64,000 nt of DNA from Saccostrea echinata (Eukaryota): contig NW_026889778.1 of the NCBI RefSeq assembly GCF_033153115.1, positions 27,342,001-27,406,000 of the forward strand, given 5' to 3'. This document shows, piece after piece, positions 27,890 to 41,104 of the stretch (within the stretch, counting starts at the first letter, position 1; every line of letters starts with the position of its first letter). The position numbers were made by a program, and so were the translations under genes. A model generated the notes under the pieces. That model had not been told where the DNA came from. It searched no databases and saw nothing but the letters and a program-made list of their open reading frames with translations.

Positions 27890-30800
27890 TTATATCGTAG
27901 TAGTTGCTATTTCGTTTATCTCCCCTTCTCTGTATGAAAGTATATAAGAGAGCTATTACCAATACTTGAAGTAATACTGCTGTGATGAGTTTTCGAATCT
28001 TAGATTTTGTTTTCATTCTTCCAAGCTGGAAAAGATAAAACCATACAGATCAGCATTAAACCTGTGTGCATCAAAGCGTTATTGATATTCATATATATAC
28101 ATCATCTGAAAAAGTAATGTTTCATTAATGCTTCTTTAAAACTGACATGAAGTCTGAATTATGCGATATTTTTATCCTTGTACGCCTTATTTCATCCCCG
28201 CACGCACTTTTCCCACAATATTTCTTTCAGATACATTGTCTTATTCTACCCCTATATTAACTCCATGGGTTTATCACACTTAAATGATTATCCGGTTTGG
28301 CTGTCGAGATGTACACATCTCCGATAGCAAAGTTTTGGAACACATCATGAGCTAACCGAAAACATATTTTAAACCTAATTATCCGCCAAAACTAAAGGAA
28401 ACCTTTTGAAAGAAGTAAATAAATTTTGAATACTATAGGTGGTTTGTAGAAAAAGTTTGATGCACAGATATTTGTTAAAATTCATTCTGTCCTAGCTTCG
28501 TCTTTAAGAAATTCCATGAAAACTAACCGCATTAGTTGGACATAAAAATTATGCAGAAAATATAATTAGAGCTGAAAAAGTATTTTCTTCTTTAAACATA
28601 CCGATATCGTTGAATTTATTTAAGGATTGACCGATTGTTTATTCATTTTAACTAGATTGAATAAAAATGAATATTTATCAAGGGTTTAGTAATTTTACAG
28701 AAATGAAAAAGAAGTTCTTTACGATTTATTAAATTCTGTACGAATATTGCATAATTATATTTGATCAATTACATAATTTTTTTCTGAATCTATTTTTGTG
28801 CAGCGAATCAGAAATTCTAAAATAATTTTGATTTTTCTGAGTCCGAAGTTAAATTTTAATGCTTAACATATGTATAAAATATTTAGACATATATATTATT
28901 GTCCCTAATCAAATTTAAAATTTTAGTTTCTAGCCATAACCAGTTCATGAAACGTATTTAAAATTTCTATCTGAATATTCTTACTACAACAAGAATAAGT
29001 GAAAGACATTTAAAGATATGAAATATTTTATGAAATTTTTAAAAAAAATTTAAGATATGGTAATTTACATATCAATGAAAAACCAATGATAAGTTCTTGA
29101 ATGACTTCTGAAATATAACTGAAAGGTCACTGAAAGGCGACTGAAAGACGATGGAAATTTTTTCTTTATCAAGTTACATATTTTCCCGCTATCACCACCA
29201 TACAAGTAGATGCACATCCCTTAGCGGGACCCTTGCTGACTGGTCAACTTTCTAGTTTTTAGAGCAAAAACGTCATAATTCATATCTTAAATTTCACGGA
29301 TGATTTTTTAATGACGAAAACTATTAATACTACCCTTGAGTATTTATTCGTGTAAAAAATATTGTCATGTGCATGATATGTTTAAACAGCTTTATATTTA
29401 ATCAATATTTCAAAATTTTTCCCAAGTGCAAAAACGTTGCCCCTCGGTAACAGGAACTTCCTGGAGTGTTGTCAAGTTAAAACTAGATTTCATTGAGAAA
29501 CAAGGCATATGTCACCCCCATTTCTCCTTTGGGATTTTTTTCTTTTGTCAAATTAGATATACATTGTATACTTCAGGAAAAATTGACATTTCAACACTTT
29601 CAGGTGCATACCTTTTCGATCTTCTCAATATATTTGTTTATCCATAAGATGATTTATTTTTTATGATACATTACACACAAAAATCAACTGTAAAAATTTA
29701 CGTATAGCTTATAATTGTAAGAAATGTTACTTCATATTATAATTCATTCAGAATTTGTATCATAAACATTCCATGTAAAAATTAATAATGAAATTATTAA
29801 TAAATATTTACTTACTGCTTGTTTTGTGCTTTAAACCACTTAAAGAAAATCAATATGGTAAGCACCGTTTTTAAATTTACCTGGCTCTGGGGCCATAAAC
29901 TTAACTTAGACGAGCTCAATTTTGATCTCAGTTTAAGTTTTACAAAATTAAAGGGATTCTGTGCGAAAAAAAGAGAATGAGATCAAAGGCGAGCTAATCT
30001 AAATTTTATGCCCCAGAGACTGGACTGTGCACACTTTCAATCAAGCAAATTAGAGTCTACGATGACCGATATCAGCCTGTATGAAATAAAATTACACGGC
30101 CTATACTTTTATCTTTTGTGCATGCACATTTCTTGAAGTTTGTACATGTACAAAAATATAAAAAAAATTAACAATTTCGCGAAAAGACAAGATCTACATG
30201 TACAGTTCTTTAAAATTGTCTATGTATAGACAAAAAATCTATAGCAGTATATAAAAGATTTCGCCGCTATAATTATTGTACATGTACAATTCTTATATTT
30301 AAAATTTTAATTACATTCATCCGATTCTTGCACTTGACTTCTGATACCCCTTAAACAATAAATCACGTAATAATCAACTTGGACCTTTAAATAGCGATTA
30401 AAAGGTGAAGACGGAAACTGTGTTTTAATATAAGTAAGTTTCAAAGACAGATAATAAAATTACCAATGAAATTTGAAACAATTTTTTTGAATGTGTAATG
30501 AGGTATATGAAATTATTAAAATAGCGACCCATAAAAGAATTGCAATACAATCCTCCCTATATAACCTACTGAGTCATTAAACACAAGAAGAATCTGAGTG
30601 ATATGCTCTCCTCCTAACTAATATAATAATCTGTATAACAAATGTGCAAATAGGCTCCTGATGATGGTGGATTTGCAGCTAATTAATAAACTATCAAAAT
30701 CATAAACCTCGTATATATCACACCGCCGAAACACTAGATTATATTAGTGTCGAGTCAAGTGATCTGAGATACGTGGCTGATGGGAGCCATCTTTTTTCTT

Positions 30801-31025
30801 TGAAAAAAAATCGTTTATTTATTGCGTTCGGGTTATCGAAAGTCAAGTAGAAGAATGGTAATTAAAATTTTAAATAGAAGAATTGTACATGTACAGTAAT
30901 TATAGTGACAAAATCATTTATATACCGCTATAGATTTTTTTGTCTGTACATGTACAACCTTTAAGAATTGTACATGGACATTTTGTCTTTTCGCGAAATT
31001 TAAATTTTTTGTATTTTTGTACATG

Positions 31026-31733
31026 TGTAACGTGTTCAGGGGTCCGTACCTGGTTGATTCCAGGATCTCGGGTTTAGATTAATGAAATAACTAAATAATT
31101 TTCTTCTTAAAATGATTGTATTAAATAATTGGCCTGCAAATATATACAGATATGGCCCTTCCCTTACATAGGGGAAAATCACACATGAAGGTCGGCCTAA
31201 TATTTAAAAAAGAAAGTGGGGGGGGGGGGGGCACCAGTTATGCCTTATTCAGGCTCGTAGTGTCAGTCACGATGCCGAGTCCTAATCTACTACTAGTAGT
31301 CCGCCTCTGACAACAGAAGATATACAAAATTGTCCTTATTCAGTCATCCACTGCTATCAGAGACTTACATCTGTCCAGCAAGGCTACCAGGCAAGCCTCT
31401 AAGGGGTTGTCCTCCCGCTATTGTCGGCCTCTAAATGGTTAGTCCAATAACACAATACACTTATTTATTGTGGCAAGTCTTCCCCGTCAGGCAATCCATC
31501 TAGTATTGATAAAATAATTGTGGCAAGCCTCAATATTAGGCAATCCACCCAACTAACCTTGTCTCGCAAATACACTTCTTCTTTCCACTGCCGTTTGGAC
31601 TAAAAGAACCCCGTAGCTTAGCTGCGCTCGTTTATATACCCTTGTTTTAGGTCACGTGATTTGCTACAGCCACAATCAGATCCTCAAAGGCCAACTTGCA
31701 TATTTGGAATACATAAAGCTATAAATCGTTACA
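31026..31733 (-). repeat. Gypsy 3' LTR
   Basis: TGTAACGTGTTCAGGGGTCCGTACC...AAATCGTTACA; direct repeat of 38318-39028; adjacent purine-rich PPT AAGGCGTGGGTAG (31734-31746, -). Confidence 0.95.
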
Positions 31734-31910
31734 CTACCCACGCCTTCGATGACATGCGACCCTCATGTTAACCAGAAAAATATTACCAAAGTTTTTTTTA
31801 TTCAAGCCAACAACTAAATCTACAAAGTTGCTTTACAATGTAGATACTACAAAGTGAACAATTACATAATAACATTTATAAAAACGTTTGCCTCGAATAC
31901 ATTTTTTTCT

Positions 31911-32600
31911 TTACACATTAAACACAATCTTTTCTTTGACAACCCTTGTGTCAACACTACCATTTCTAAATGTCTTGATGGTTTTCGTAGTAATGATTCT
32001 TTTTATTGGCTCTGTCTGAGTTCCAATATCTTCTTTCCTCTTCAATGGTACACTGTCACTCTCTTTTAGCAAGGTGACTTGTACTGCCTTTTCTTCCTTT
32101 CTGTCCCTCTCACTGAACTGTTCCTTTAAAGCACAAGGTTTTCCTTGTGATGCCACTGGTAAGGGGGTGGTTGGCTTACGAAATACTCTTCCCTGTAACA
32201 GGTTATTCTCTGTCTCTTTAGCAGGGATAGGTTCCACCTCGGGTATCGGGTCGTCGCCTTCACTGCTGTCCGATACTTCTCCAATAAGGTCTCCAGGATC
32301 TTGGTTTAGCCAATCCTCCTCCTTTTCTTGCATCTGTTCGTCTCTACTCACACCATCCCTACCACCATCTTTATTTCCAAGCATAATAAGTTTCTCTTGG
32401 GATATACCAGGATGGCATCTTTTTATTTGCCTCGTGAGGTTGCTCTTCTTAGTATTCTTTAAGTCGCATGACTGGCACTGAAAGGTTAAGTAAGTAAGTA
32501 AAGACATGGTCTCTGTACTCTCCTTCACTGTTTGCTGAGAGAGAGAGCACATAGGACAACGTTCAAACTCCTTATCTGGTGTTGATTTCGTCTTCACCAT
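31911..32600 (-). CDS. Gypsy accessory ORF3 (env position): zinc-finger-like N-terminus plus acidic low-complexity region
   Basis: 229-aa ORF between integrase and PPT, in the same sense as pol. Contains CPMC... and CQSC-x12-Q-x4-H; TTTTACTGTTTTTTAG sits directly before the ATG. Confidence 0.7.
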   Translation of the reverse strand: MVKTKSTPDKEFERCPMCSLSQQTVKESTETMSLLTYLTFQCQSCDLKNTKKSNLTRQIKRCHPGISQEKLIMLGNKDGGRDGVSRDEQMQEKEEDWLNQDPGDLIGEVSDSSEGDDPIPEVEPIPAKETENNLLQGRVFRKPTTPLPVASQGKPCALKEQFSERDRKEEKAVQVTLLKESDSVPLKRKEDIGTQTEPIKRIITTKTIKTFRNGSVDTRVVKEKIVFNV

Positions 32601-32699
32601 CTAAAAAACAGTAAAATTTCTAAAATATACATCAAAGAACTGTACAACCTTTATTCAGTAAAAATACATCCAAATACTTTTCTAAGCAGGATTATTTGT

Positions 32700-35600
32700 C
32701 AACATAGTAATCATGAAGCCAAGTAGGTCGTTTTGTAACTTTCTTTGGGCGATCATTGCACGTATAACTGATTGGTGTATCTTTATTACTATTTTCTCAG
32801 TTGCTTGTTACAAATGGTCTTCCTCATTCTGTGGAAGACCTTCACCAGAAAGTGTTTGAGGATTTTTTTTCGGATGCGATCCACGTGTATAATTTGTTCT
32901 GAGCCACGAGACCCACAGTTGACCAAATAGTTTAAATCAGATATCTTTTTGACAATTCTAAATTGGCCCTGCAATAGCTGGCGAATTTAGGTGAGGTTCC
33001 ATGCTTTCTGCGTAGAAAGAATACATATACTTCCTCCCCAGTACTGAAAGTTTTGCACTTCAGTTTCCTATCATGGAAGTGCTTTTGTCTATAGAGGGGT
33101 TGTGAGTTCACGCCTCAACATAAGCATATTAGGAGTTAATCCAGTAGTTTCATGCACGGAAGATCTGTAAGCCAGCACTATATATGGCAAGTGGACATCT
33201 CAATCAGAGTGGTGTTCATTTACAAATCCACGGAGCATTACAGTTAGTGTTCTATTAAACCGCTCAACCATACCATCCAATTATGGATGATAGGGAGTGG
33301 TTACGGGTCTTCTGAACATCTAATAACTGGCACATTTCCCTAAAAAGTTGTCTCGCGTACTGTGGACCCTGATCAGAATGTATTACACCTGGGACACCAA
33401 ATCTAGTCACCACCTCTTCTACTATTTTACCAGTCTTGGCTTCCATATTGGGCATGGGGAAGCACTCTGTCCACTTGGTAAAATAATCTGCTACGACTAA
33501 AATATACCGATTTTCATTCTCAGCTTCTGGTAACTCGCCAAGGAGGTATAGAGAACCCACTATCTGCATTGGCGCTTTAATAGACATAGTAGACCCTTTT
33601 TCATTTTTTACATACTTTACAACCTATTATGTATTGGTAAACAGCTTTTTGTAGACCTGACCAATAGTACGATTGTTTAATTTTTGCCAATGTCTTGTGT
33701 ATGCCAAGATGACCAGTTGTTCTATCGTCATGACAGAACTTTAGAATTGTTCTTCTCTCTTTGCTGGGAACTACAACCTGATTTTTCTGACTTTTTGTTA
33801 TCAAATCATCCCATTTCCTGTAGAGAATACCGTCTTGCAAATCTAACCTGTCCCACTGGGACCATAAAGATTTTATCACTACGACTCTCCTGACACGACA
33901 TTATATTTAGGCGATCATGGGTGATCAACCATTGTTTTACCTTACTTAGGTCTCTGTCTTCATCCTGCAGTTCACCCTAGGAAATCTCTGTGGAGTCATC
34001 TGTTCTATTTTCCTCTGATTCCAGTGTTTGTACAGCATAGATGTGGTCAGTCTTGCATTGCTTGCATGGAATGCAACTTAAGTCTTCCGCATTTTTGTGA
34101 AGTCTACCAGGCCTATGCTCAATATGAAAATCATAACTTGACAGCAATTCAATCCATCGAGCTAGCTGTCCTTCTGGATCCTTGAAAAATTCATTAACCA
34201 TTTCAATGAGCTATGTTCTGTCCTTACGGTAAATGTCGCCCGCGTGGCGCAGTGGTTAGAGCGTCTGCTCTAGAGTCGCGGAGTAAGGAGTTGATCCTTA
34301 CGTCGCGGGTTCGAATCCCACTGTGGGACGTGGAGACCGGTCCTTCGGATGAGACCGTATAAACCGAGGTCCCGTGTCACAGTAAGTGTTGGCACAAAAA
34401 AGATCCCTCACTGCTCAATGGCCGTAAGTGCCGAGTATAGGACAAAATTTGCAGCTCTCCACCGGCAAGTATGAGTGAAAAATTCTCGAGAGGGACGTTA
34501 AACAACAAACAAAAAAACTTACGGTAAATCTTCTACCATACAAATACTGTCTGAAGTGTTTCACAAAGTGTTTCACAAAGGTCAACACTGCTAAAAGCTC
34601 CTTTTGTGTGACACAATACTTCCTCTCTGACTTAGAGAGGCTTTTACTGGCAAATGCTATAAACCTCTTAATTCCATCCTGTAGCTGGGATAGCACTGCG
34701 CCGACTGCCTCGTTGCTGGCGTCCGTATCAAGGATAAACTCCTGCTCAAAGTTAGGAAAGGCCAAAACTGGAGCTGTTGACAACTCTTTTTGTTACTTAT
34801 AAATGGCGCTTTGGCACTTGTCATCCAATCTAAAGACCGTATTTTTCTTTGTAAGGTCGTGCGGAGGTTTGGCCACCAAAATGGCATTTAGACCATAGCA
34901 AAATTAGGCACGAACCTCCTATAATGATCTTACCTCTGTGATGTTCGAGGGGACAGGCCACTTTTTCACTGCCTTTATTTTCTCAGGAATGGTTGCTATA
35001 CCCTTTTCGGATAAAACATGTCCCAGGTATTCGACCTTCTTTGCAAGCAGCGCGCATTTGCGTACCTTCAACTTTTGCCCTGCGGCTAATAAACGGTCAA
35101 ATACGTGTGTCAAATTCAGTATCATTTCCTCTATGGTCTTCCCTATCACAATGAAATCGTCTAGGTAAACAAGACAGATATGCCACTGTACATTTCTAAG
35201 AACTGCCTCCATTAAGCGCTCGAATGTGGCAGGGGCATTACAAAACCCGAAAGGCATCACTTTAAATTGGTACAAGCCCCGGCGGGTTACAAATTCTGTC
35301 TTGTTTTGATCCTTTTGGACATTTCTACCTGCCAGTAGCCGGAGTTAAAATCAAGAGTGGAAAACCACTTGACCCCAGAGAGTTGGTCCAAAGAGTCGTC
35401 TATCCTTGGATGAGTATAGGCATCCTTAATAGTTCTTTCATTAAGTTTTCGATAGTCAACGCAGAATCTTGTTGAACCATCTTTCTTTTTCACCAAGAGA
35501 CTGGTGACGACAACGGACTCACCGACTCTTCTATAACATCTCTTCCTAACACATCGTCAACATGCTTGTTTACCTCTGCTTGCATGTGAACAGGTATACG

Positions 35601-36500
35601 CCTTTGATGCTGCTTAAAAGGGGATGCTTCTCCTGTATCGATTCTATGCTCTGTAACATTTGTCTTACCTAGATCTGTGACAGATGCGGCAAACAGCTTG
35701 GAGTATCGCAATAGCAACTTATAAATTGATTTTGCATTCTTAGCGTCCATACGCTCCACCGTTCTATCATGTATTTCCCTAATATGTTCTGGCATTCTCT
35801 GTTTTTGGAAAAGTCTTTGGTGTCCTTAACACCCGCATAAACGTTTTCAATGGGTGACATATTAGCAAACAACGTCCCCTTGTATACTGATTTAACTTGA
35901 TCAGACAATTTAAACATTCTTACTGGTGCAACTTTCTAACCTTGTACAATGGCTCTAGCGACTAAAGCACGGTCAGACTCAACAAACCGATTTGCAGGTT
36001 CAATTAGCCCTATTTTTGGGACCTTTTCAAACATAGAAGGTATAACAATACACTCTGCCATAACTTCACTACCTGGTGGTATACAAAGATTGCTAGCCAA
36101 AGTGATCCGACAACAACCAACTTTCCCTTCAAGATTTAAGTCATAATCATGCATGATTACCGCCAACTTCTAGTGACAAGGATGTCATATTTAAGTTACA
36201 ATCATTGTCTCTCAAGAAATCTAAAAACCAAGTATACCATCTACCCCTATTTGAGCTACTGCAAACATTCGCACGAAACTCTGATTTCCTAACTTAAAGG
36301 GAATGGCAATTGAACCATCCACCTTAAGAGGTGAGCCATCTGCAGTACCTATTGGCTTACCTATTGGCAATTCATGAAGTTTTGCACTGGAACCAGCAAC
36401 GGAATTAAGGATCTCCGAAAATAGAATACTTATGGTTGCCCTAGAATCTATCAAAAATCGGTCAACATTGCCATGAATTAAGACTTAGATAAACATTCCA
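32700..36500 (-). pseudogene. pol: Gypsy pol (protease, RT, RNase H, integrase), multiply disrupted
   Basis: Protease FLIDSRAT; RT KKKDGSTRFCVDYRKLN, MPFGFCNAPATFERLM, VYLDDF; RNase H ILDTDAS...KELLA; integrase HHCC (HDDRTTGH...CKVC) and IHSDQG; GPY/F-like QGQFRIVKK. Confidence 0.92.
34235..34517 (+). mobile_element. tRNA-derived SINE inserted in the Gypsy RNase H region
   Basis: A box TGGCGCAGTGG, B box GGTTCGAATCC, central domain CTTCGGATGAGACC...AAAGATCCCTCACTGCTCAATGG, (CAAA)n tail, and a perfect 12-bp TSD CTTACGGTAAAT (34223-34234 / 34518-34529). Confidence 0.92.
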
Positions 36501-36599
36501 GCCTCGCCAATTTTATAACTAACTCCTGATTTGTTTGGTTCTTTGTCTCTATTAAATCCTGGTGATGATGCAGGTGCACCCGGTTTGCTTCCAGCTTTA

Positions 36600-37330
36600 C
36601 CAAGAGACTTTCAATAACTAAAGCACTTCGCCTTCACATGTCCTTACCTTTTACAGAAATGACAAACAATCTTACGTTTTTCGACCAATCCCTTGAGATA
36701 CTATTTGTTTACCTTTGGAATTACTAGCGTTTTCGTCCTTGAGAACTTTAATTTCTTTCTGTAGGTCTACAACATCTTTAATCAATATGGCAATCGGGTT
36801 TAACTTCTCAGGTTTCTTCTGTGTAGACCTTGCGTATGTTGCACTTTTATGCATACGTTGGTCAGCAGCAGTAAATGCGTCTCATCCTACCGCATGCCTC
36901 ACAGTGTCGTTTAAATCTACTCGCCTAGCTTGCTTAACTCTTCACCGCAGGTCTCTATCCCGAAGGGCATCTATATATTGTTCTTTAGCAAGCCTTTCTT
37001 TCACTTCAGCTGTATAGTAAGCTAAATTTGTTAGCCTCCTTATATCTTGTCCCAGTTCTGGCAATGATTCCGAAGCTTTCTGTCGCTGCTCACGCAGCTG
37101 AGCTCTAAACAAGAACCTCTCCTCAAGTGCTCTACATAGTAATCTATAATTGCACTTTTCTCCTTCAGGTAAATTGCCAAGAACACCTTTTCTCCTGGCC
37201 TCTTGAAGATACTGCGACGCATACCCATTTCTGCTGTTGTCCACTTATTAAGGCACATATTTCAAAATGTGATTTGAGGCTTGTCAGACTATCTCTTCCA
37301 TGATATATACTAGTAGTCTTTCTAATGCAT
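36600..37330 (-). pseudogene. gag: Gypsy gag (frameshifted)
   Basis: ALEERF...LFRAQLREQRQKASESLPELGQDIRRLTNLAY...EQYIDAL; CCHC knuckle CHFCKR*GHVKAKC at about 36623-36665. Confidence 0.85.
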
Positions 37331-38294
37331 ATGGAGAAATGGTGTTCATTCTTCTCATTTACATATCGGCCATATTGGAGCTATAATGGCGACAGATTCC
37401 ATAAAGGTTTATATAGAGAACGAACAAAAAACCCGCAGATTTTTATATAATAACTATTTCGGATAAAGTTCTTCCGCCGATGTTTAGATTTTTCTTAATA
37501 TTTTCTTCCGGAAATGACAATATTGTTGATGCCAAAGTGAAAGTTGCGACCGCCTTTTTGATTTGAAATTCAGAAGCGAGAATATAATGTTTTAATGAAG
37601 GAAAGAGCACAGAATTGGTGTCTTCATCATTTTTGGTGATTAAATGTAAGTGTTTATTGCAAGTTGACAGAGTTCTTCCGCCGATTAATAGGTGCAGACG
37701 AATGCCTATTTTTATAAAATACAAATGATTTATCATTTCATGAAGAGTTACGACCGCCTTTTTATTTTGAAAAAGGCAATTTCTGGCATCAGTGTGACCT
37801 ACTTATTACCAAAAAAGAAAGAAGACGGTTTCATGAGTTGTCAACTGTTAATAACCCAAAATTCTACCCAAATAACTATGACGGGGGCTTAAAAAAACAA
37901 AACAAGCTGTGCTTGCAGGTTTTAATATAAAAATTTTAAGAAATGGAATATTTCGAGTTTATGCAGGATCTTATGAATATTAATGAGAAATAAATCACGT
38001 GGGAGCAACCTCATGAATAATCTGTACATCATTTCTCCATATGGTGTTTATGTTTTGCACCTGACCCTTGGTATGACCTATCACCTAATGAGGTACGCCT
38101 GCTTTCTGGTATGCCTGAATCCATGGCGTTTGCCTTTTTTACTGTTTCAAGCTGTTTCAGTCAAGCTTTCCTGTAGTCTCTTAAATTCCTTCTCTACAGC
38201 AGCCATCATATTTCACAAATGCAACCCAGCAATAAAGGTATAAGAAAACACAAGCTTAAAAAAAATCAACAAATTTTCAGAATATTGAACCGAG

Positions 38295-38312
38295 ATCCCA
38301 CCGCTGCCACCA
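38295..38312 (-). promoter_or_regulatory. Primer binding site, tRNA-Leu
   Basis: TGGTGGCAGCGGTGGGAT lies 5 nt inside the 5' LTR and is complementary to the 3' end of eukaryotic tRNA-Leu(AAG/TAG) (...AUCCCACCGCUGCCA-CCA). Confidence 0.88.
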
Positions 38313-38317
38313 AATTT

Positions 38318-39028
38318 TGTAAAGTGTTGAGGGGTCCGTACCTGGTTGATTCCAGGATCTCGGGTTTAGATTATAAAATAACTAAATAATTTTCTTCTTA
38401 AAATGATTGTATTAAATGATTAGCCTGCAAATATATACAGATATGGCCCTCCCCTTACTTAGAGGAAAATCTCACTTGAAGGTCGGCCTAATATTTAAAA
38501 GAGAAAGTGGGATGCACCAGTTTTGCCTTATTCAGGCTCGTAGTGTCAGTCACGATGCCGAGTCCTAACCTACTACTAGTGGTCAGCCTCTGACAACAGA
38601 AGATATACAAAATTGTCCTTATTCAGGACGAACAGTCATCCACTGCTATCAGAGACTTACACCGTGTTCAGCAAGGCTACAAGGCAAGCCTCTAAGGGGT
38701 TGTCCTCCCTCCCTTTATGGTCGGCCTCTAAATCGTTAGTCCAATACACAATGCACTTATTTATGTGGCAAGCCTTCACCGTCAGGCAATCCACCTAGTA
38801 TTGATAAAATAATTGTGGCAAGCCTCAGTATTAGGCAATCCACCCAACTAACCTTGTCTTGCAAATACACGTCTTCTTCCCACTGCTGTTTGGACTAAAA
38901 GAACCCCGCAGCTTAGCTGCGCTCGTTTATATACCTTAGTTTTAGGACACGTGATTTGCTACAGCCACTAACAGATCCTCAAAGGCCGACTTGCATATTT
39001 GGAATATATAAAGCTATAAATCGTTACA
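38318..39028 (-). repeat. Gypsy 5' LTR
   Basis: Direct repeat of 31026-31733, followed on the minus strand by the PBS. Confidence 0.95.
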
Positions 39029-39447
39029 CTTGTACAATTTAAAAAAAATGTACATGTACAAAAAATAAAACTATAGGCCGTGTAATTTTGTTTTAGACAG
39101 GCTGCTATCTTGCATTATTGAGGTCACTTACAAATTTCAGTAGTGCAAGGGCATAAACAAGTAAAAAAATTAAAGTTTAGTTTATAAATATGTTCAACAC
39201 CCATTGTTGTTTATGAAAAGCTGCGATCCAATACAGATTAAACAATTTTATTGTTAAAATTATATTTGTATGGCTGCATGCTGAATGTTTTGCAGGTCAA
39301 CTGCATTAAATACATAAATAATTAATTCATTTTCAAGATTTCACCAGGATCGCAACACTTTTCAAATAGCTTAATATTTCTAGATTTTATGTGTAAAAGC
39401 TTACTTTGATCCATTGCGTGTATGCGTTCACTAGAACGATTTATTAA

Positions 39448-39760
39448 GGCCAGACGACACGTTCCTCGAAAATATATAATTTTTCCCAAGAATTTGTCAT
39501 TGAAGTATTACTACTTAGTTTCCTCTCCAAAAATTGAGGTACCTTACCAGGCATTTGGGCTAGATACCAGAGGGTGATATTTCTTACATAATCCTTATGG
39601 GTAATCTTTTGAATTGCCGATGTAACAATTTTTGGTGTACTTATTTTTAAAAACATATTGAAAACAATTTAGAAATCACAAGAGTATGACAATTATGAAT
39701 AATATTTGATATAATACCAAAGTATACAACACATGTATTTCAGGAACGTGTCGTCTGACT
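39448..39760. mobile_element. Short MITE with TTAA TSD (Kolobok-like)
   Basis: TTAA|GGCCAGACGACACGTTCC ... GGAACGTGTCGTCTGACT|TTAA. Confidence 0.8.
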
Positions 39761-40279
39761 TTAAGACCCTTACATTGCCCTCCGATGTCCGTGCATACAA
39801 ATATTCGACAGTATGAGGTGGTTAACTAGGAAATGTACGGAAAATATATGAATAGAATTATAAAAAAGACATTTCATCCATTCTATTTAATTATAAAATA
39901 TATTATTCGTTGTAAAAATATTACGTAATCCCCATCTCGCTGCATACAAACTGCGTCAAGTTTTACGATATGACGTCACATCGCCAAGTGCATTACGATC
40001 AGTGACTTGTTTATACCTTGCTATGTGGGATTTAACTAACTACAAAACAATGGCATAGTAATTTTAAATGTAGTTTAATTCTTTCGTTCACTTTATAATC
40101 GCAAATCATTTCATTTTGTGGTATAAGTTAGGCCCCGCCTTTCTGTAGCCTTAACTGTGCTGCGTATTACCAATGAGAAAAAAATTGAGAAAGACTGTAA
40201 GCTAAACTTAAAGGTTAAGACAACAAGGTCAAAAACCAGAGTGCATTCGGAAAGATCTTGAAACAGAACAGGAAATGCA

Positions 40280-40533
40280 CATTTTACTTGGCACTCAGGA
40301 CCATTGACCAGTGAGGGATCTTTATCGTGCCAACACCTGCCGTCACAATGGGCCTCGGTTTTTAAAGTCTCATTCGAAAGACCCACAACATTCACTTCAA
40401 AGTGCCGAGCGCTTGGCGAAGGAACAGTCGCTACCCTTTTTTTTTTATAGACATAGGTCAGTCGCGGCCGGGGTTTGAACCCCCTACTTTCCGATGACGG
40501 AATCGCTAAACTGACTGAGGCTACCGTGACGGT
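40280..40533 (-). mobile_element. tRNA-derived SINE, 3'-truncated
   Basis: Same head (ACCGTCACGGTAGC...GTTCAAAC) and central domain as the copies at 54525-56358. Confidence 0.8.
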
Positions 40534-40559
40534 CTGTCAAATACAAAAAAAATCTTTTA

Positions 40560-41104
40560 CCATTCAAAGGTTATCAAGAATGTTAAATTTTTTGAGAATT
40601 AGGTCAGACTTCAATATCAAGGAACTGGGGTTTAGAATCATGTTATATTTGGAAACGTGTCGTCTAGTCACAAGTAATGCACATGTCAAAAGAAACGCCT
40701 TATCTTCTCTCATTCAAAACTTATCAGCAATGTTAGAATGTTTGAAAAGTAGGTCAAACTTCAAGGCAAAGTCACGGTGTCAAAGTCATAGTATATTTAG
40801 AAAGGCCTTGCCACAGGTAATGTACATGTGAAATATGAAGGCCCTATAGATCTCTTCTCATTCAAAAGTTATGGCCAAAGTTACAGTAATGTTAAATGTT
40901 TTGAAAAGTAGGTAAAAGTTAAAGGTCACGGTGTTAAAAATCATAGTATATTTGGACAGGCGTTTCACATGTGTATGTGTAATATGAAAGCCCTTTTTTA
41001 TTCGAAATTTCTGACCAAGGTTGAAGTTTTTGTGACTGACAGACGGACAGTTGACAGAATGAGATTACATGTCCCCTCGCTTTCGCAAAAGCGGGGGACA
41101 AAAA
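40560..41104 (-). mobile_element. Helentron-associated element, partial
   Basis: Terminal hairpin GTCCCC(T)CGCTTTCGCAAAAGCGGGGGAC followed by an A-run, GACA/GACG microsatellite, and internal AAAAGTAGGTCAAA repeats. Confidence 0.6.

Follow-up and report, generated by a model that had tools for sequence, protein, structure and literature searches.

In errantiviruses and foamy viruses, env and Tas/Bel1, respectively, lie between pol and the 3' LTR and are expressed from spliced messages; Tas is a DNA-binding transactivator. Among animal Ty3/Gypsy elements, Cer1 of C. elegans carries a non-env 3' ORF, CERV, which is likewise expressed from a spliced message. According to the available text of its description, CERV is a nuclear regulator of 517 aa that exports unspliced RNA, has a cysteine-rich finger, a C4-type loop and H/M/G domains, is predicted to multimerise, and has no obvious homologues outside nematodes (PMC10309623). 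In plants, the VANC proteins of the Arabidopsis VANDAL DNA transposons have been shown to act in demethylation and are proposed to act on their own family via short DNA motifs (available parts of PMC6719617 and PMC5735166). The accessible portion of the former cites only plant cases of counter-silencing proteins encoded by transposons; for the transposons of animals, the existence of such counter-silencing or regulatory genes is far from settled.

Here, we analyzed a 64,000-nt stretch of the Saccostrea echinata genome (contig NW_026889778.1, positions 27,342,001 to 27,406,000; hereafter the window), the minus strand of which carries a Ty3/Gypsy LTR element with TG...CA LTRs, a primer-binding site (PBS) and a polypurine tract (PPT). 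Its main parts, in the direction of transcription, are as follows.

38318..39028, minus strand: 5' LTR (TG...CA), 91% identical to the 3' LTR
38926..38933, minus strand: candidate TATA box at LTR position 98
38295..38312, minus strand: primer-binding site, common to the whole clade
32692..38209 (ends approximate), minus strand: shattered gag-pol (gag, PR, RT, RNase H, integrase; Pfam matches) with insertions
31911..32600, minus strand: accessory ORF of 229 aa, ATG to stop, decayed, between the integrase stop and the PPT/3' LTR
31734..31747, minus strand: polypurine tract, with a short conserved inverted repeat before it
31026..31733, minus strand: 3' LTR, pairing with the 5' LTR at 91% identity

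The flanks of the element, CAAG and CATG, form an imperfect 4-bp target duplication, and the PBS is presumably of the tRNA-Leu type. Pfam RVT_1, RT_RNaseH_2, Integrase_H2C2 and rve were recognized in the element; the protease match lies below the Pfam cut-off (E=0.026), and the order of the remnants, PR-RT-RNase H-integrase, is that of Gypsy. A SINE-like, tRNA-derived insert occupies approximately 34230-34510 inside RNase H (ARAGORN calls a tRNA-Ser at 34238-34329), and related copies are found near 40285, 41915, 54600, 55737 and 56126. The inverted repeat before the PPT (31748-31770) is kept across families whose flanking sequence is not. The integrase ends at a stop at approximately 32692, and its C-terminal tail, R-x-x-R-x-R-x-x-P-x-W-L-x-D-Y (32692-32750), is conserved in all relatives; we take this tail to be reminiscent of nucleosome-binding motifs.

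The ORF behind the integrase represents an accessory gene conserved in a bivalve Ty3/Gypsy clade; the copy of this gene in the window is dead. A preliminary description of the window had singled out a 229-aa sense frame between integrase and PPT as the longest left open in a shattered element, and this was borne out: the frame, at 32600-31911 on the minus strand, is the longest among 45 frames of at least 60 aa in 29000-41000, followed by a 153-aa antisense frame and a 141-aa frame of RT. The argument that a protein lacking a signal peptide and a transmembrane segment is not env also stands, given a maximum 19-residue Kyte-Doolittle mean of 0.27; with no hydrophobic segment here and a maximum of 0.89 across 38 relatives, we rejected an env identity. 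The name "third ORF" has to be corrected, because intact relatives have a single gag-pol frame, which makes this the second ORF and the third gene. The acidic WLNQDPG region and the RKPT and TQTE motifs pointed out earlier are all present in the window ORF and conserved in its relatives. The two C2H2/C2HC-like fingers do correspond to the finger pair of the family, but both are broken in the window copy. In finger 1, the counterpart of residues ~19-33 of P0002, the nearest relative (44% identity), is found in a neighbouring frame; judging from this alignment, the reading frame leaves and then rejoins within the finger. Finger 2 is without one zinc ligand. Because both fingers are broken, the open frame is no evidence of continuing selection on this copy, and co-option of the window copy was rejected.

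The window ORF has 35 matches in its own genome among the 107 candidates scored, and 33 stretches around such matches were taken for study. The own-genome matches examined sit behind a Gypsy integrase and before an LTR; in seven stretches, representing five families, one uninterrupted gag-pol frame of 1632-1706 aa is followed by the accessory ORF, and the LTRs are 99-100% identical. To avoid selecting on the ORF itself, elements were also chosen by integrase alone (143 matches, 67 loci examined). The accessory ORF was present in 33 of the 43 distinct ingroup elements picked in this manner, and none of the 20 outgroup elements scored above 15 bits for it. The preliminary description had asked whether the ORF occurs in other copies and is linked to Gypsy pol and LTRs; these counts answer in the affirmative, and on the same grounds a one-off insert in the window copy was rejected. 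In a quick integrase tree of 50 rows, from which the window's own shattered integrase was left out, all ORF carriers fall into one clade (SH-aLRT 98) with non-carriers nested inside. The ten non-carriers include L130, L092 and L093, and some of the ten are decayed; L130 is young (LTRs 98.8% identical), has only 287 nt between pol and LTR and serves as a natural control. Since 10 of the 43 ingroup elements, including the young L130, are without the ORF, the ORF may be dispensable.

Full-length relatives, as named in 30 clusters that were consulted, come from Magallana, Ostrea, Saccostrea, Pinctada, Mizuhopecten, Argopecten and Pecten, and database proteins that equal ORFs of the window's own genome carry the label Saccostrea echinata; one relative, P0092, is filed under the genome of a bacterial symbiont (Ca. 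Thiodiazotropha), probably through host contamination. In a protein-family atlas, the best match is a nameless 236-aa cluster, and the other matches are finger families with low recognition. RefSeq often names the relatives "RE1-silencing transcription factor-like" (REST-like), and these names, together with the ORF being the longest frame in a shattered element, might suggest a captured host zinc-finger gene, an unrelated insert or a co-opted host gene. We consider such an origin highly improbable: the own-genome matches examined sit between Gypsy integrase and LTR, the ORF type follows the integrase clade, multi-finger host-type proteins match the fingers only and not the full length, and the fingers of the window copy are broken. 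REST is a single-copy host gene with a long multi-finger array; a host REST identity was rejected for a multicopy, two-finger protein inside LTR elements. Neither an unrelated host gene nor a one-off insert, the two sources considered in the preliminary description, thus explains an ORF whose type follows the integrase clade.

The accessory gene of the elements themselves also carries a signature of constraint. One between-family pair (L051-L053) gave a dN of 0.36 and a dS of 2.6; in seven other between-family pairs, dS is saturated and protein identity is still 32-50%. Within families, the pooled pN/pS was 0.47 over 10 pairs (P=2e-6), and four older pairs gave YN00 ratios of 0.93-1.04, which, as expected, is what decayed copies would give. 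A dN/dS near 1, which had been named as evidence against the gene, was therefore not found between families, where the ratio is well under 1, and these values indicate that the accessory gene is under purifying selection. Its conservation across families and its fixed place behind the integrase agree with the earlier proposal of an element-encoded, non-env accessory protein. The gene is carried by young elements, and its hosts include bivalves that are farmed. Of the oyster and scallop genes listed as REST-like, HIVEP3-like or uncharacterised, many belong to retrotransposons, which bears on the reading of expression studies.

We propose that, in working elements, the product would be made from a spliced LTR-to-ORF mRNA and would act as a dimer that binds DNA and sustains expression of the element. 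We give this reading an even chance; that the effect goes in this direction (activation or anti-silencing) is assumed, as a commitment of the model and not a result. Relatives are ~210-350 aa in length, and the structure modelled for P0002, which is weak overall (pTM 0.26), consists of two classical fingers, disorder and a hairpin. The corresponding parts of the window ORF are as follows.

32571..32600, minus strand: H3-tail-like N-terminus (T3, K4 and T6 in register; 36/38 cluster representatives)
32412..32558, minus strand: C2HC + C2H2 zinc-finger pair, both damaged in the window copy
32250..32312, minus strand: W-x-x-Q-D-P-G motif and acidic serine-rich tract (D 34, P 31, G 31, W 28 of 36)
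32163..32192, minus strand: G-R-x-x-R-K-x-T-x-P motif (R 35, K 32, T 34, P 36 of 36)
32010..32030, minus strand: LC8-type motif DIGTQTE, which fits the motif rules in the available text of PMC6607443
31914..32003, minus strand: C-terminal beta-hairpin, predicted from the P0002 model

The pair consists of a C2HC finger and, a short distance behind it, a C2H2 finger. At the base-contact positions of finger 2 (42 parsed), K/R stands at -1 in 39, N at +3 in 30 (N or Y in 41) and R at +6 in 37; under the recognition code, this residue pattern is that of DNA-binding fingers. Among solved proteins, DNA-binding fingers such as those of CTCF come nearest in sequence, and a fold search of the model gave no match at E<=0.001 in the PDB or among predicted viral structures. 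The nucleic-acid binding proposed in the preliminary description is thus supported by conserved base-contact positions and by matches to DNA-binding fingers. Two fingers alone have low specificity, which speaks against a DNA-binding regulator. In the proposed factor, the finger pair would dock at sites within the element, and recruitment of cofactors would fall to the acidic and R-K-x-T motifs. The latter belong to a set of conserved islands in an otherwise disordered chain, namely W-x-x-Q-D-P-G with the acidic tract, R-K-x-T-x-P and D-x-G-T/V-Q-T-D/E.

The N-terminus matches histone H3 (taken from the same genome) in register, with T3-K4-x-T6 in 36 of the 38 cluster representatives; the same T3-K4-T6 pattern occurred in 9 of 7678 internal 9-mers and in 0 of 106 other N-termini. 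In 37 of 38 relatives, Met is followed by a small residue, which allows the Met to be removed; R8 is present in 21 and R8-K9 in 12. The N-terminus is H3-like in six of seven integrase-picked families; the own-genome count of 14/17 includes L032, which has a mis-parsed start, with two families unparsed, and the profile search is biased toward matches retaining the N-terminus. The T-P-R-K of the N-terminus could alternatively, in our assumption, be a CDK site or a minor-groove motif. Under the preferred model, the initiator Met would be removed, and the exposed H3-like tail (T3-K4-x-T6, often R8-K9) would engage or decoy histone readers or writers.

The same parts could instead compose a self-limiting repressor, with its fingers on the LTR and an unmethylated H3-like tail that brings in a co-repressor, resulting in copy-number control. 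Unmethylated H3-like N-termini of human proteins bind NuRD (available text of PMC8166343), LC8-driven dimerisation serves co-transcriptional transposon silencing in flies (available text of PMC7861614), and matches per family in the S. echinata genome are few, although these counts are lower bounds. We regard this repressor as improbable: R2, which is part of the published mimic definition, is found in none of the 38 relatives (K in 18, N in 18), and the identical anatomy suits activation.

The expression-promoting factor would act as a dimer, and a candidate for the pairing is the TQT motif. In 36 sequences, Q0 is present in 34, T+1 in 29, D-4 in 19 and D/E+2 in 28; a TQT-type anchor with a hydrogen-bonding residue at -4 and D/E/P at +2 was thus found, and residues 174-189, shortly before it, have low pLDDT. 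The same genome contains an LC8 gene. We suggest that the motif would bind this host hub protein, so that two chains are paired and four fingers read DNA; as stated in the accessible part of PMC6607443, many TQT peptides do not bind LC8. Hairpin strands are predicted at 203-216 and 219-232 in P0002, with pLDDT ~70-80.

Three features of the window element relate to expression of the ORF.

32601..32616, minus strand: pyrimidine tract and AG acceptor abutting the ATG
38336..38344, minus strand: donor CAG/GTACGG near the LTR end, cut 38342/38341
38847..38855, minus strand: promoter-proximal donor candidate AAG/GTTAGT, cut 38853/38852, matching 8/9 consensus positions

The acceptor abutting the ATG had been noted in the preliminary description, and it extends to the family: a pyrimidine tract with YAG within 18 nt of the ATG is present in 16 of 18 elements versus 9 of 162 background windows. 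The donor CAG/GTACGG proposed to be joined to it is indeed present at 38342/38341, but LTR-end donors were found in 4 of 14 families, no significant excess over chance (2.5 expected, P=0.23). GTACG is also present in L130, which is without the ORF. A TATA box is located at LTR position 77-147 in 14 of the 14 families examined, and a donor lies 69-107 nt behind it in 9 of 14 families (2.5 expected, P=1.4e-4), an interval that was chosen after inspection. In the gag leader, no donor position was conserved across families. The promoter-proximal donor probably fits better, and CAG/GTACGG is probably not a general donor. A donor just behind the promoter would join the acceptor and lead to translation from the ORF's own ATG.

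The spliced LTR-to-ORF mRNA postulated earlier is supported at its acceptor end, but no such junction was present among the five joints listed in four contig sets (seven RNA runs were found, the best with a share of 0.13, and four were examined, all of them contigs). A relative ~90% alike in a metatranscriptome covers 29 of 30 bins. One contig begins 30 letters before the acceptor, with 19 unaligned; a junction and a diverged intron fit it alike, so it was not counted. Because the acceptor is conserved (16/18 vs 9/162), the accessory protein is likely made from a spliced mRNA, as far as the genomic sequence can indicate. In a RefSeq model, P0183, 60 gag residues are joined before the Met of the ORF, which would bury the H3-like tail, and a metagenome ORF, P0078, fuses gag-protease to the accessory ORF. 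No 7-mer motif common to the LTRs of different families was evident. The LTRs of L048, L052 and L130 contain family-specific short tandem motifs of 7-9 copies each; strong internal LTR repeats are thus found in L048 and L052, but also in the ORF-less L130.

C2H2 fingers can bind RNA, and a promoter-proximal donor with a 3' acceptor would force the export of intron-containing RNA. A Rev/CERV-like RNA factor that attaches to unspliced genomic RNA and thereby permits its export or stabilises it would therefore be a conceivable product. The spliced Cer1 message with its 3' ORF offers a precedent for the export of unspliced RNA, and the RefSeq model shares the gag N-terminus with the ORF, just as the first exons of CERV share the gag frame (available text of PMC10309623). 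We nonetheless think an RNA factor unlikely, because DNA-type base-contact residues are kept in finger 2, the H3-like tail suggests a role at chromatin, inspection of the alignments by eye revealed no leucine-rich export signal that is conserved, and the C4-type loop and structured domains belong to CERV.

The gag-fused model would also permit packaging, and the LC8 motif and the basic motifs could then serve an adaptor for integration targeting or nuclear entry, which, carried along with the particle, would connect the pre-integration complex with dynein/LC8 or with selected chromatin. We find this adaptor quite improbable, since a separate start codon with its acceptor, seen in 16 of 18 elements, speaks for a free protein, and the integrase already has its own conserved basic tail.

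The notion of a dimeric DNA-binding factor can be compared with what occupies the same slot in sister clades, where the ORF type tracks the integrase clade. In 12 of the 20 outgroup elements (L131-L135, L137, L138, L142-L145 and L147, a sister clade with SH-aLRT 99), the slot holds another finger-pair ORF, several with a coiled-coil-like end. These 3' ORFs have an acidic N-terminus, a finger pair and an N-P-x-Y/F-V-D-P-G motif, and some have a TQT; the two tested showed no Pfam family above the cut-off. Four further outgroup elements (L136, L139, L140 and L141) combine a finger pair with a KCTD-type BTB domain (Pfam BTB_2, E=2e-18 and 1.5e-14 in the two ORFs tested), and the product is possibly an oligomer or a ubiquitin-ligase adaptor. 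Fingers combined with a putative oligomerising module thus seem to recur in this slot, which fits a DNA-binding regulator. L141 (G000:C157:14105-22263) is located between two histone H3 genes (C157:5388 and 27228), the spacing of which is approximately twice that of other arrays; this suggests insertion into a histone cluster.

More tentatively, the factor of the window's clade might be a sequence-specific anti-silencing protein that uses its H3-like tail as a decoy and host LC8 for pairing; bivalve Gypsy elements would then be "complex" elements with a regulatory slot, in which the finger-plus-oligomer designs of the sister clades arose independently. We think this fuller picture rather doubtful. 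If true, plant VANC would have a counterpart in a retrotransposon of animals, an H3 mimic would be encoded by a mobile element, and the element would use LC8, the same hub by which flies silence transposons. The four separable motifs of this small natural protein predict H3-reader binding, LC8 binding, a DNA motif and a splice junction.

The conserved accessory gene is apparently undescribed. No description was found in the literature, including the available text of PMC8220671, PMC12440569 and PMC12859917, in a search that covered mainly openly accessible main texts. Studies of mollusc Gypsy clades share hosts and superfamily with our elements; in the main text, as far as available, "ORF" and "zinc" have counts of 0 in PMC6238403, and "zinc" has a count of 0 in PMC10294476.

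Among host proteins, the H3 N-terminal mimics VRK1, PCLAF and BCL11B resemble the accessory family in the small residue after Met, in K4 being in register and in the inclusion of zinc-finger factors (available text of PMC8166343); the accessory family goes beyond this likeness in keeping T3 and T6 and often R8-K9. However, the mimics are host genes and are defined by R2 (iM-Z-R2-X-K4), which is K or N here; since R2 is absent in 38 of 38 relatives, the accessory protein lies outside that published definition. With the LC8-dimerised ASCIZ and Panoramix, as described in the accessible parts of their reports, the accessory protein shares a disordered chain, TQT-type anchors and a presumed nuclear role; unlike these host proteins, it has one or two motifs with a hairpin behind them, and its LC8 binding is predicted. 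ASCIZ is itself a zinc-finger factor. The likeness to errantivirus env and Tas lies in the slot, and unlike env, the accessory protein has neither a signal peptide nor a membrane segment. VANC is similarly transposon-encoded with a proposed action on its own family, whereas here the carrier is an animal LTR retrotransposon and no common target motif was found. CERV, in turn, shares the animal Ty3/Gypsy setting, the non-env 3' ORF and probably the spliced message, and we count its nuclear regulatory role, which is also proposed here, its finger and its predicted multimerisation as a likeness; its greater length, C4-type loop, H/M/G domains and RNA export differ from a protein of ~210-350 aa with C2HC+C2H2 fingers, an H3-like tail and a TQT motif, the two being set apart by description, not by alignment. 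By analogy, the accessory gene would work most like CERV by position and like VANC or Tas by its proposed role, but it belongs to none of them.
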